Assembly: GCA_000934665.2 (NCBI GenBank)
Contig: JYFJ02003290.1
Location: 1 to 43,832, forward strand
Source of the DNA: Catajapyx aquilonaris
Taxonomy: Eukaryota
Direction: 5' to 3'
Length of the DNA: 43,832 bases
The number at the start of each line of letters is the position of its first letter. Position 1 is the first letter of the stretch. The notes beneath the pieces were generated by a model. The model worked only from the letters and a program-made list of their open reading frames with translations, had not been told where the DNA came from and searched no databases. Below, in pieces: positions 299 to 5,414 of this stretch. A program made the translations under genes and the position numbers.

Positions 299-2225
299 AT
301 GGCTTCCTCGCTGCTTCAAGGCTCCGTGGAACAAGTGGACGAAGACGCCGCGGATTTGCAGTTTCCGAAAGGTGAGAGGGGACATTTCATATGTGAATAA
401 TTAAGGCTTACTATGCCGCGAGTCGGTTGGAAGTCGAAGTCACCCAGTGTGCCTAAAAAGGAGGTGAGAAAATATTAGTGGTGTGTGGACAAGTACAACT
501 GCACAATGCTCCATGATGCAAGTTCCGTGTTTCATAAACATATAAAAGGACAGGTTTGTTTGTATGTTTTGTTTGACCCATCCCGCCCCACTCCGCTCTT
601 GTCGCACCCTACCTTCTACCCTACCCTGACTTACCATAGCAACGGGTTCACCATGGCAACTGGGTTATCACAGTAACGGAATTACCATAACGACAGGTAA
701 CCCTGGCCGTGGAATTACCATGGGAACCCGGGTTACCATTGCGACGAGATTCTCCTATTCCCGTGAGAAGAAGGGGTATGCTGCTGTGTTGCATAAATTT
801 CGTGCAGGTGGCTGAAAGTAATAGTAGCCAATGAATGTCAGTGTTAATTACAGGCCTGCTTAGATCGGATGTGCATTAATTTTAGTTTTACATATGGCTA
901 CTCCCTTGCTTTCAGCCACCCAGCCATCGTCAGCCACGTGGTATGGCGTGTGCACATCGTGCGAGGAAACCTTGTCTTGTCCATTTGTGAAGTGTGCTGT
1001 CTGCGCTGTGCCGACGATTCGACTTTGCGTTGGATGCTTTTCGTCTGGAGCCCAGCCAGATGGACACCTGAACTCTCATGACTTTACGGTGGTGCGGGAA
1101 GACTTCTGCCTCTTTGAAAAAGGATGGACTGGAACCGATGAGCTTCAGCTGTTGGATGCTGTGATAATGTGTGGGTATGGCAACTGGAGTGATGTTGCCA
1201 AGAGGTGCCAGCGCAGCCCTGAAGAGTGCCAGAAACACTACAATCAATGGTACATTGAAGAACCACACCCAAATTTGCCTCAGTTTCCAAAGCGACAGGA
1301 GGTGAGCCATCCAGCTCCGTACGTTGCTGCCTTTGGAACCATGGACCCGCCAAGGCCACCGCCTGGAACTGACATGTACTACGACATGGCTGGATACAAT
1401 GCTTTTCGGGGTGACTTTGAGGTTGAGCATGATAACAACGCTGAATATGAACTGGCCACACTCGATCCAGAAATGTGGCATGACGCTAAGCCAGATTTGG
1501 CAGATCTTGGACATGCCTTGGAATCAGCAATGGTGGACATCTACCTAAACCGGCTGCGGGAACGTGAGCGACGCAAGCAAATAATTCGTCGCCATGGGAT
1601 CATATTAATCAACAAGCTGCTCACATGGCAACACCGCTTCACTCCAGTTTTGAAACCAGCTTTGTGTGAAAGCCTGCAACCATTCATGCAACTGCTCTCA
1701 GGTATACAGTACGATTGCTTAATGGAAGGCTTAGGCTTGGAAGCAGCTTTGCGGCAGGAAGTATTTCACTTGCAAAGTTACCGTCAAAACGGTCTGACTT
1801 CTCTCTCTGCTATTCAACTCTACAAGGACAAGTCAGCTTCCAGAATGGAGGAACGCAAGGAACGCCGCACATACGTCAATAATCTTCCCTCCGCCATGAA
1901 GGCGCTTGGGATAGTTCCAGAAAGTGACATGCCCAATACTGGTAGTTTTCCACCAACAGCCAGTAAACGACGGGTGGCAAATCCAATAGACGTGAGTGGG
2001 ATGCCTGGCATTGAGAAGCTGACTCAAGCCGAGCAGGAGCTGTGCTCAGTAGCTCGTCTACTTCCACTGTCATACATAGAATACAGGGACATAATGATAA
2101 ATGAATGGCAGAAGGAAAAGGGACTGAGGCTAGCTAAAGCAAGGACACTCATCAAGATTGATGTCAACAAGACTAGGAAGATTTATGACTTTCTGCTCAC
2201 CCAGGGAATCATCACCAATGGTTGA
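299..2225 (+). CDS. Ada2a: Transcriptional adaptor 2A (ATAC complex subunit); probable exons 299-371 (shared with Rpb4) + 916-2225, ~460 aa; uninterrupted ORF from ATG 894
   Basis: ZZ zinc finger (CTSC...CAVC...LCVGCF...H..SH), SANT ([22 protein letters not shown]), [22 protein letters not shown] and C-terminal SWIRM ([24 protein letters not shown]), typical of TADA2A. Acceptor ctcccttgctttcag (AG 914-915) is in frame with the phase-1 donor at 371/372. Confidence 0.9.
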
Positions 2226-5200
2226 GATAGTGATGAACCTGACAGCGACTTGAATGTGTTTTGCCATCTTTCTTGTGTCATGAAATAACAATTTTGGATC
2301 AAGCAATAATTGGATGCAGGCTAATTTGGAAACCACCCAGGTTCCATTTGTGAAGAGCTAGTGATGATCTGCCGAAAAGGCACATCTGCAAAGGTTATTG
2401 AGGCAAGAGAGCTTTACAGAATCCATGTCTTGATCACATTGCGCAGCTCTGCCTTTGTTTGGTAGGAGAGCAGTATTATTGTTGAGATTGTCAGCTTGAG
2501 TCACTATTGTCCATTCTTCTTATGTTAAAGCTGAAGTGTGTATATCGGGAAAGGATAATGCTTGTTCATATGTGAAACTTTTTTTCCCCTTCAGATCAGT
2601 TCTCTTCAATAGCTCAGCAGTTAATAATCACGTGCTTTTGCAAACACAGGTAGATACTAGTGGAGGGTGCAAATTGAATGCTGCAGACTCTGGATATAAC
2701 AGACTTCGAGGGACCACGGAAATCAGTCTGCTACAACTGAGAATCTGTTATATCTGGAGTCAACTGTATTTGGTTTTAAAATGTTTCTCAGTATGAATCT
2801 GGAGTGGTGTGCATTGAAGTTTCCTAGTATGGAGGTTGGCATGTGTATTATATATTTATTTGCTTATCAATTTGGACAAATTACCTCTGTTGAGAGCTGT
2901 TTCATATTGTGATCTTATCAAATAATGTTTTATATGGTTGATTGTGGAACAGTACGAATGCCACTTTTGACAGTATCATAGAGAAAAATTAGCCAGTGAG
3001 GAATGAAGGTTGCACATGGATCAGGTGGTAATGATTTCAGTTTGTTGTGAAATGTATATGGTATGAAATCCATAATAATTGAAAATTTACACTGACCTTG
3101 CTTGTTGATTGGTAGAGCATTTTTTTGTTACTTTGGATGTAAGATGTGCTTGAATTTATAACGCCAAGCAGAAATTCCGTGCTTCATTTCATATTGTTGA
3201 AATAAAACTGTGCTTCCGAATGACAACAATGTGCAGATATTTTCACAGGCTTCTGATTTTCTTACAGTATTTATCTATACCATCGCTTCAGTAAGTGTGA
3301 CCCACCTTTTTGTAATGAAAGCCTAACAGATTGGCCCCAATTGGCAATTGGATTTCTAATAACATATAGATGGGACGTGGGGCTTTGGTCTTACCCATTC
3401 CAGTTTTGAAATCTTACAAATTTTCAACATTGATTGATTTCAAGATTGATTGATTCTTTTTATGGATGAGAATTTGTTACATACTGTCTAAAGCTGAATG
3501 ATAAAAATTATAATGTGTCATAGGAACATTGCTCGTGGAACTAGTCCTTTTATAGGATTTTAAAGAGTGCTGTGTTTCGAAGAATAATCAAAATAAAGCA
3601 ATATTTTAATTTTTATAGGTAAGACAATCATGCTCTTCAAAGTCATGTTTTTTTTTATATACTAATTCTGTTTTCTCTGCAGAATTTGAAACTGCTGAAA
3701 CTCTTCTGATCTCAGAGGTATGCATGCTCCTGGAGCATCGCAAGACCCAAAATGAGACTCTTGAGGAAGAACAAGAGCTGTCCGAGGTCTTCATGAAGAC
3801 CCTCAACTACTGTCAGAGATTTGGGAAGCTTAAGAATCGGGAGACCATTGCAGCTGTCAGAAGGTCAGAGAGCAAATGAATGGGTTATTATTAATGAGGC
3901 ACCTTATTAACTGTTGAAACATTGACCATTGCAGCTTGCTGATGCAGAAAAAGCTCCACAAGTTTGAACTAGCAGCGTTGGCCAATTTATGTCCGGAGTC
4001 TCCTGAAGAGGCCAAGTCACTAATTCCAAGGTAAAGTAGGTGACAAGGGTGGAGAAAATGAATTTTCAGCGACTGGTTTTCTTCTTTGTTCCCTTCTTTT
4101 GCCATCATTGGGTGGAATTTTGTGCGCGTTGTCTTCACAGCCAGTTCTGTAGTTGTGATAGTGCAGTGAAACCAGTCTGTAACCGCCTCTGAATGTGCAG
4201 CAAATCATTACAGAACTTGTATGAGGTCCCTTAAGAAAATGTTGAATACTGTACATCTCTGTAATAGCATCTAATGCAGTGTAGAAAATTTTTGTGGCAC
4301 TAGCAAGTTGTATTCTCTTAAATATTTCACTGCAGTTACATACCATATATACGAAGTGTTACCCAAAAGTTCACGGAATGACACCAATACTTTTGAACCG
4401 CATGAAAATGAAAAACTACTCTGCCAAGTGGCAGCCTCTGAAATTGAATGGATCAGTTTCTGTGGGTGGTTTTGTATTGTCGTGTTTGATGCATTCTGTG
4501 ATTCTACCAGGGGTGAAAATGGACAGCGTATTTTGTTTTAAACTTGGCAAACGTGCTACAAACTCACGAGATGCTGCAAGATGCATTCAGTGCTGTAGAG
4601 ACATACAAATGATATAATCGGTTCAAAGATGGCCACATTTCAAATGAAGATGACAATCTTTCTGGGCGTCCTTTGGCAAACACAATCCCATAGAAACTGC
4701 ATGAAATTATTCTCAAATCATCTTCCTTTCAGCTTAATTTTCGTTTTCTAGAAGAGGAAGAAGTCGCAGGGAGCTAAATCTGGAGAAAAAGGGGAAGGAA
4801 ACACTGCTCGAAGTTGTGCGAGAGCAACAACATGACAATGCGCCGCCTCATGATGCGTGTGCCGCTCAGCAGTTTTTGGCATCCCACAACATGACGATTG
4901 TCCGCCAGCCACCTTTTTCGCCAGATTTAGCTCCCAGCGTCTTCTTCCTCTTCCCGAAAATGAAAATTAAGCTGAAAGGAAAAAGCTTCGACTCCGTAAA
5001 CCAGATACCACGAAGAATCGCAGACAGTTCTGAGAGCCCTAACAAAAAATAACTTCCACAAAGCATTCCAATTGTGGGAAGAGCACTGCGATCGGTATCT
5101 ATGTTGCAAAGGGGACTACTTCGAAGATGATGGAGGAAAATAAGGTGTGCGGTAAGGTAATTTTTAAGAAAAAAATCCTTCCCCAAACTTTTGGGTAGCA

Positions 5201-5414
5201 CCTCGTAGGTAATGTGGCACCTCAGAGCCAAGTACAGACTGTAATGTTTATTGATCTCCATTAGCAAAGGAATTTGGCGTACTTGTTAGTGTAACACTGA
5301 ATAAATTAAAGAGGTGCTGCTTTCTCTTCTTGTAGTCTGGAGAGTCGCTATGAAGATGATGAGCTGAGAGAGATTCTGGATAACATTCAGACCACCATAA
5401 GTTTCCAGTGCTAA
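299..5414 (+). CDS. Rpb4: RNA polymerase II subunit RPB4 (POLR2D); exons 299-371, 3683-3863, 3935-4030, 5336-5414; 142 aa
   Basis: Spliced product [45 protein letters not shown]...[15 protein letters not shown]...[44 protein letters not shown] matches the RPB4 family. All introns are GT-AG with consistent phases (73+181+96+79=429 nt). AATAAA at 5428-5433. Confidence 0.95.
630..745 (+). repeat. Degenerate ~17-nt tandem repeat (~7 units), core TTACCATGGCAAC
   Basis: Units ttaccatagcaac, ttcaccatggcaac, gttatcacagtaac, attaccataacgac, gtaaccctggccgt, attaccatgggaac, gttaccattgcgac. Confidence 0.6.
4350..5207 (+). mobile_element. Defective, internally deleted mariner transposon in Rpb4 intron 3
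   Basis: Imperfect TIRs TA|CGAAGTGTTACCCAAAAGTT and AACTTTTGGGTAGCACCTCG|TA with TA duplication. Transposase remnants HDNAPPH and [22 protein letters not shown] at 4816-5052. Confidence 0.9.

Follow-up and report, generated by a model that had tools for sequence, protein, structure and literature searches.

The window analysed here is the 43,832-nt contig JYFJ02003290.1 of Catajapyx aquilonaris (assembly GCA_000934665.2, forward strand, taken as a whole), and its left end carries the coding sequences of two unrelated nuclear proteins, the RNA polymerase II (Pol II) subunit Rpb4 and the acetyltransferase adaptor Ada2a. The whole Ada2a open reading frame (ORF; 864-2225) sits on the same strand within the first intron of Rpb4 (372-3682), in frame with the short first coding exon of that gene. 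We propose, with a probability of roughly 0.8, that a single transcription unit of this pancrustacean arthropod makes both proteins. The locus consists of the following features, from 5' to 3'.

253-291 (+): T-rich run of 39 nt directly 5' of exon 1, with a T run at 260-283; flagged as a skipped repeat in read mapping, reads seemingly being cut there.
299-371 (+): coding exon 1, probably shared, 24 codons plus one base, phase 1; from translation, the 371>3683 join of an RNA contig and the same ..LQFPK plus G/gt end in eight comparative loci.
372-3682 (+): Rpb4 intron 1, 3311 nt, GT..AG, enclosing the entire Ada2a-specific exon; the RNA contig skips these 3311 nt.
916-2225 (+): Ada2a-specific coding part, with AG 914-915 as the preferred acceptor, 886 and 934 as alternative starts, and the stop codon at 2223-2225.
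2226-3220 (+): presumed Ada2a 3' untranslated region (UTR) and polyadenylation region within Rpb4 intron 1; RNA contig 2381-2737, read depth in the bin 2701-3000, AATAAA at 3201.
3683-3863 (+): Rpb4 exon 2; PF03874 match of 1e-06 and RNA contig junctions.
3935-4030 (+): Rpb4 exon 3; PF03874 match of 1.2e-06 and RNA contig junctions.
5336-5982 (+): Rpb4 exon 4, coding to the stop codon at 5412-5414 and followed by at least 568 nt of 3' UTR; RNA contig to 5982, AATAAA at 5428, 5726 and 5811.

The ATG at 299 lies in a favourable context (aaag ATG g) and opens the 24 codons of exon 1, the coordinate-based translation of which (299-370) ends in DLQFPK. Exon 1 ends in phase 1, its last base (371, G) opening a split codon, and the donor reads AAG/GTGAGA with its GT at 372-373. 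Continuation from the acceptor AG 3681-3682 into the exon starting at 3683 (ttttctctgcag/AA) gives FPK-EFETAE. The complete Rpb4 model has four exons, all introns being of the GT-AG type, and encodes a product of 142 amino acids that ends in TTISFQC before the stop codon. It belongs to the Rpb4 family by the length of this product and by the RNA_pol_Rpb4 domain (PF03874) spread over two exons, of which exon 2 matches profile positions 2-61 with 29.5 bits and exon 3 positions 65-94 with 29.2 bits, at a Pfam cut-off of 25.6 bits. By tblastn, the Rpb4 pieces of the window are 57-91% identical to the Rpb4 exons of the comparative loci described below.

RNA evidence came from the single small public run that was found, X1, whose kind is not on record and of whose sampled words 34% match; it was compared with positions 1-9000 of the window. 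One single contig of 1005 nt contains the junctions 371>3683, 3863>3935 and 4030>5336, each flanked by GT..AG, which directly confirms the Rpb4 model and indicates that the run behaves as a transcriptome. The contig has ~78-79 letters on the exon-1 side and thus begins near 293. The original prediction, made from the letters of the window alone, had placed the conserved RPB4 N-terminus in exon 299-371 with a phase-1 end and had spliced it to 3683; translation and splice-site reading bear out the former, and the RNA contig the latter. Its remark that ORF callers would miss Rpb4 is likewise supported, as Rpb4 is a real spliced gene with a first exon of 73 nt.

Several observations concern the surroundings of these exons. 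A perfect TGACGTCA (CRE-like) palindrome lies at 24-31, ~270 nt 5' of ATG 299, and might be a promoter element, as might the T-rich run at 253-291. Intron 3 of Rpb4 harbours a defective mariner-like element (4350-5207) with 32-nt terminal inverted repeats (4350-4381 and 5176-5207), an internal inverted duplication of 80 nt (4713-4792 and 4912-4991), and transposase remnants with an SPDLAP..FFLF motif on both strands, in addition to a weak DDE_3 match below the Pfam cut-off. Just 3' of the Rpb4 3' UTR, at 6000-6900, the RNA contigs are deeper and show mismatches, small indels and many loose ends, suggesting a transcribed repeat family. No Rfam families or tRNAs were found in positions 1-10000 of the window.

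The Ada2a ORF at 864-2225 is continuous, in agreement with the intronless body that had been predicted. It contains the domains ZZ_ADA2 (6.9e-13), Myb (9.3e-09), TADA2A-like_3rd (8.1e-21) and SWIRM (2.6e-12), in this order at residues 20-67, 77-119, 165-246 and 374-440 of a 443-residue reading, all above the Pfam cut-offs. RNA contigs of run X1 at 1291-1659, 1632-2320 and 2381-2737 match the window with 0 mismatches; together with the read depth up to the bin 2701-3000, they show that the ORF and at least ~500 nt past its stop codon are transcribed.

Three acceptors just 5' of the ZZ finger would join exon 1 to this ORF in frame. The exon start at 916 (AG 914-915) has 15 pyrimidines among the 20 upstream bases and gives FPK-ATQPSS, compared to 11 of 20 for the start at 886 (AG 884-885) and 13 of 20 for the start at 934 (AG 932-933). 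The first two had been predicted, the one at 884-885 as the weaker, and both hold at the level of the reading frame; the third was absent from that prediction. The start at 916 is most likely the one used, as judged by its pyrimidine tract, the strongest of the three, and by its conserved position in other loci. It is also favoured over 886 because AG 884-885 falls just a few bases past a branch-like TTAAT site. Joined to exon 1, Ada2a would comprise 460 residues, compared to 443 from the in-frame ATG at 894. An in-frame acceptor is expected by chance at about one AG in three; however, the combination of a phase-1 donor with an in-frame acceptor just 5' of the ZZ finger recurs in 8/8 comparative loci, which lifts it above chance.

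On this basis we infer a unit in which a promoter located 5' of 299 would drive a pre-mRNA beginning with exon 299-371, i.e. 24 residues ending in phase 1. Joining the donor at 372 to the distal acceptor (exon start 3683) would remove the Ada2a exon together with its polyadenylation site as intron 1, giving the 142-residue Rpb4 of the Pol II stalk. Joining the same donor to the proximal acceptor (exon start 916 being the likeliest) would give a transcript that ends at a polyadenylation site in Rpb4 intron 1 and encodes a 460-residue Ada2a, the adaptor of the ATAC acetyltransferase complex, with its ZZ, SANT and SWIRM domains preceded by the 24-residue N-terminus of Rpb4. The choice of acceptor would thus amount to an alternative last-exon decision between splicing and polyadenylation. 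The use of the 371>916 junction, the site of Ada2a polyadenylation and the single promoter are the predicted parts of this scheme. A read-through "bicistronic" mRNA carrying both ORFs was considered and rejected, given that the Rpb4 contig lacks the Ada2a exon and that unspliced exon 1 soon meets a stop codon.

The sharing of exon 1 with Ada2a is strongly backed by comparison with homologues, the RNA of run X1 displaying the Rpb4 join only. A search with the Ada2a ORF found 534 relatives, and N-termini were compared among the 120 matches listed, to which the names and counts in this paragraph refer. The closest named Ada2a is that of Periplaneta, with an identity of 44%. Of the 52 matches with organism names, most bear the name transcriptional adapter 2-alpha, 2A or TADA2A, the others lack a protein name or are hypothetical, and 2-beta does not occur; these names, together with a pancrustacean TADA2A clade of 99% support, identify the window protein as an orthologue of the alpha paralogue. 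An Rpb4-type N-terminus is present in 30 of the 37 named arthropods and in none of the 15 named molluscs, annelid, brachiopod and vertebrates, nor in any of the 68 unnamed contig-derived ORFs, which cannot show a spliced exon. The 30 belong to bees, wasps, ants, sawflies, Anabrus, Gryllus, Zootermopsis, two stick insects, Macrobrachium, Penaeus, Procambarus and Daphnia magna. After the shared peptide they continue with D, G, E or V, the codons of which all have G as their first base, in line with the splicing of a phase-1 exon that ends in G. An exhaustive search of cluster representatives yielded 146 further unnamed proteins, eight of them with the Rpb4-type N-terminus, and a search for this N-terminus with residues 1-40 of P0112 as the query gave two proteins only and added nothing.

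Two kinds of unusual model were seen among these proteins. P0008, P0070 and P0098 bear both the Ada2a domains and PF03874, and are two genes fused by the gene caller. In P0001 of Periplaneta americana, residues ~20-32 form a degenerate version of the shared peptide (..DVEGDLQYSKD), reflecting perhaps divergence or duplication of the first exon, or an error of the gene model.

The layout itself recurs in other genomes. Metagenome contigs were scanned with the Ada2a alignment, giving 80 loci, which were searched by tblastn with the Rpb4 and Ada2a of the window and compared with named proteins. Four of them are termite-like (L001, L002, L003 and L006; 77-80% to Zootermopsis and Cryptotermes) and match Ada2a in one high-scoring segment pair (HSP) over query residues 11/12-432. 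Two ant-like loci (L004 and L005; 96% to Acromyrmex) and a Daphnia-like one (L007; 86% to Daphnia magna) also match in one HSP, and a further arthropod locus (L009; ~40% to insects) matches in two HSPs in different frames, i.e. with a single intron or frameshift. In each of the eight, an Rpb4 exon 1 that ends in ..LQFPK plus G/gt is located 5' of the Ada2a body. Rpb4 exons 2 onward follow downstream of Ada2a in L004, L005, L006, L007 and L009, and tblastn gave no Rpb4 exon-2 match in the downstream sequence available for L001-L003. Moreover, the best in-frame acceptors of these loci generate the junctions of annotated isoforms, namely FPK-DWLCV in the termite-like, FPK-DCLLSPTDK in the ant-like and FPK-EMS in the Daphnia-like DNA, and the acceptor of the window at 916 occupies the equivalent position 5' of the ZZ finger. 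In all eight the Ada2a body has at most one interruption, and Rpb4 exons follow it wherever the available downstream sequence is long enough.

The picture differs in ~30 other loci (L024-L051, L055, L061, L078 and L079), where the match is the terminal exon only, starting at query residue 374-377; some of these have further exons 0.05-7 kb upstream, and tblastn detected no Rpb4 in their flanks. They include the vertebrate-like L026 (98% to a bird protein) and L027 (90%), in addition to contigs nearest to mollusc and annelid proteins, indicating that the intron at about residue 374 is old. Neither the window nor any of the seven loci with an uninterrupted Ada2a body has this intron.

Two features of the comparative loci stand apart. 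In L009 the body is interrupted once, at 10774-10893, with a frame shift between query residues 241 and 249, due either to a secondarily gained intron or to an assembly frameshift. In the termite-like contigs the Ada2a frame is open upstream: an ORF of 513 codons begins 39 nt past the donor in L001 (6265-7806), L002 (3491-5032) and L006 (9737-11278), and one of 504 codons begins 66 nt past the donor in L003 (1055-2569). Chance, an alternative retained-intron isoform or an artefact of ORF calling (P0004) are candidate explanations.

A maximum-likelihood tree (LG+G4, quick search) was computed from 54 of 121 rows, comprising the query, 31 named and 22 unnamed proteins. The window Ada2a nests in the pancrustacean clade with the 99% support given above. 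Within it, the protein, Decapoda and Insecta form a three-way polytomy (support 90), and the branch leading to the protein is long, at 1.16 changes per column. Public annotations already include Ada2a isoforms with Rpb4 exon 1 in Hymenoptera, Orthoptera, Blattodea, Phasmatodea, Decapoda and Daphnia. The suggestion of the original prediction that the window may extend the known taxonomic range therefore finds no support, as the window falls inside a bracket, from Daphnia to insects, that already shows the arrangement. As judged from these comparisons, the Rpb4/Ada2a arrangement is pan-crustacean, old, conserved and already known in kind.

Several points weigh against a shared exon in Catajapyx. 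No read or contig of run X1 spans 371>916 or 371>886; the run covers neither 601-1200 nor 3001-3600, and the gap over the former counts neither way. RNA cover ends by ~3000, short of the AATAAA at 3201, the first one after the Ada2a stop codon. The in-frame ATG 894, just 5' of the acceptor, could start a 443-residue protein from a promoter in intron 1. Among the 37 named arthropods, seven have no Rpb4 N-terminus (Periplaneta, Cryptotermes, Panulirus X2, Homarus X2, Lasius and two Timema), so isoforms or gene models free of exon 1 do exist. In addition, many of the annotated isoforms are automatic predictions.

In one alternative, Ada2a would be an independent nested gene that starts at ATG 894 from its own promoter in intron 1, never uses exon 1 and matches its frame as a relic or by coincidence. 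A TATAAAA-like string near 541 and annotated homologues that start at an internal Met (P0006, P0017 and P0067) would fit such a gene, as would the in-frame ATG and the lack of exon 1-Ada2a junctions in run X1. Nevertheless, we regard it as improbable. A phase-1 donor paired with an in-frame acceptor before the ZZ finger is found in 8/8 loci and in 30 named species, with a chance of about one third per lineage. The residues around 894 are without counterpart in homologues, the alignments beginning at query residue 11-12. ATG 894 itself lies in a poor context, with C at -3, and 12 ATGs precede it between the donor at 372 and position 894, which speaks against a long leader derived from the intron; these counts are still compatible with a start site near 894. 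A combination of both routes, in which an isoform with the shared exon exists beside one from an intron promoter, is more plausible, yet still rather unlikely. It is suggested by the decapods, where X1 isoforms carry the Rpb4 N-terminus (Procambarus and Macrobrachium) and X2 isoforms lack it (Homarus and Panulirus), and the window does possess both the acceptor and the nearby ATG. However, the isoform names stem from automatic annotation, and the species compared differ.

With regard to the origin of the nested Ada2a, its body is intron-free in five separate lineages, the gene is intron-rich in other animals, and Rpb4 has kept its own introns. This is what retroposition with capture of the first exon of the host predicts, and the pattern would date the event to before Branchiopoda, Decapoda and insects diverged. 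Retroposition with exon capture, as put forward in the original prediction, is a reasonable candidate origin if taken as a single ancient event; a lineage-specific one is unsupported, since the termite-, ant- and Daphnia-like contigs share the intron-free body. Stepwise loss of introns is a possible alternative, and relics of retroposition such as a poly(A) tract or target-site duplication would not last that long. The intron-free ORF and the long branch of 1.16 changes per column could also be read as signs of a recent, lineage-specific retrocopy in Rpb4 intron 1, possibly redundant or decaying. That is very unlikely, because termite-, ant- and Daphnia-like DNA share this intron-free nested layout and because the ORF is intact with four domains and is transcribed. 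Tentatively, and at slightly less than even odds, we suggest that the locus arose once, when a processed Ada2a mRNA retroposed into Rpb4 intron 1 in the stem of Pancrustacea or in earlier arthropods, captured the promoter and first coding exon, and replaced its intron-rich parent. The arrangement would then have been held for several hundred million years, suggesting selection for a coupled, mutually exclusive output of Rpb4 and Ada2a from one promoter. No paper was found in the literature searched on the Rpb4/Ada2a locus outside Drosophila or on a retrogene origin.

The prototype of such a shared unit is reportedly the Ada2a/Rpb4 locus of Drosophila melanogaster, said to have been described by Muratoglu et al. 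in 2003 and Pankotai et al. in 2010. Like the unit predicted for the window, the fly locus yields both Rpb4 of Pol II and the ATAC adaptor Ada2a, the two products have in common an N-terminal coding exon that ends in ..DLQFPK, and the Ada2a-specific sequence lies 5' of the Rpb4-specific exons. The original prediction had called the locus a unit of the Drosophila type and hence a system that is not new; the position of Ada2a in Rpb4 intron 1 on the same strand agrees with this. Compared to the fly, the window represents a different pancrustacean lineage, its best named Ada2a match among those listed being 44% identical, and its Ada2a junction is a predicted one.

The annotated 2-alpha isoforms X1 of Zootermopsis (P0008), Halictus (P0009), Macrobrachium (P0011), Penaeus (P0016) and Daphnia magna (P0024) display the same succession of Rpb4-type N-terminus, residue with a G-initial codon, short linker and ZZ finger, and the genomic layout of the window recurs in termite-, ant- and Daphnia-like contigs. 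They differ from the window in the residue after FPK, which is Asp, Gly or Glu instead of the predicted Ala (G/CC), and in the linker, which would be shorter in the window, the first ZZ cysteine following FPK after 12 residues.

A similar architecture is known from the cholinergic gene locus, in which VAChT is nested in the first intron of ChAT. Both loci have an intron-free gene in the first intron of another and are deeply conserved; a common first exon and co-regulation by alternative processing belong to the cholinergic locus and would apply to Rpb4/Ada2a as well. However, the shared exon of the cholinergic locus is non-coding and its products act in one pathway, whereas the exon of the window would encode 24 residues of both proteins, which would act in different complexes, the Pol II stalk and ATAC. 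In the literature, Ada2a/Rpb4 is called "bi-cistronic" in PMC7413394, which cites Pankotai 2010, and is handled as a single RNAi target in PMC7909629; its gene structure is unmentioned in passages of PMC2777428, PMC13631227 and PMC4640578.

Beyond the Rpb4/Ada2a locus, the window contains members of other gene families. An intron-free ORF of 612 residues on the minus strand (7544-9379) resembles arthropod ionotropic receptors (IRs; variant glutamate receptors), with an Atlas feature score of 0.97 to several arthropod IR clusters and a Pfam Lig_chan score of 21.8 bits against a cut-off of 30.8; the Atlas hints at its taxon at the level of the phylum only, and a word-indexed search found no homologue, which points to a very divergent member of the IR family. 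Carboxylesterase copies or exons lie at 10615-12819 (+), 16295-16723 (+) and 28086-29485 (-). PF00135 matches of 1.9e-30, 1.2e-08 and 3.2e-11 were obtained on three ORFs, with 16295-16723 outside the Pfam test; the signal-peptide-like first exon at 16295-16723 closely resembles 10615-10950, and a more diverged version is present at 28997-29485. Altogether these copies seem to form a local cluster of esterases. A multi-exon gene is present in three paralogous copies in tandem, at 21730-23901, 33061-35180 and 40085-42191 (+), whose exon ORFs are very similar. Four of their exons gave no Pfam match when tested, and from their motifs they may be acid-sphingomyelinase-like phosphodiesterases.

For genome annotation, the combination of a 73-nt first exon and a 3.3-kb intron 1 in Rpb4 with an Ada2a that probably lacks its own start codon means that ORF-based or naive callers will miss Rpb4, or truncate or fuse the two genes. 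For the biology of the family, a coding first exon common to two unrelated transcription proteins appears to be no oddity of the fruit fly, and to be conserved from water fleas to ants and termites. The main value of the locus lies in this deep conservation and in what was likely an ancient capture by a retrogene, made testable by the comparative loci. It would offer a clean and old example of the probable capture of a host exon by a retrogene, and a natural system for a switch between splicing and polyadenylation that may set how much of a Pol II subunit is made relative to a histone acetyltransferase adaptor.

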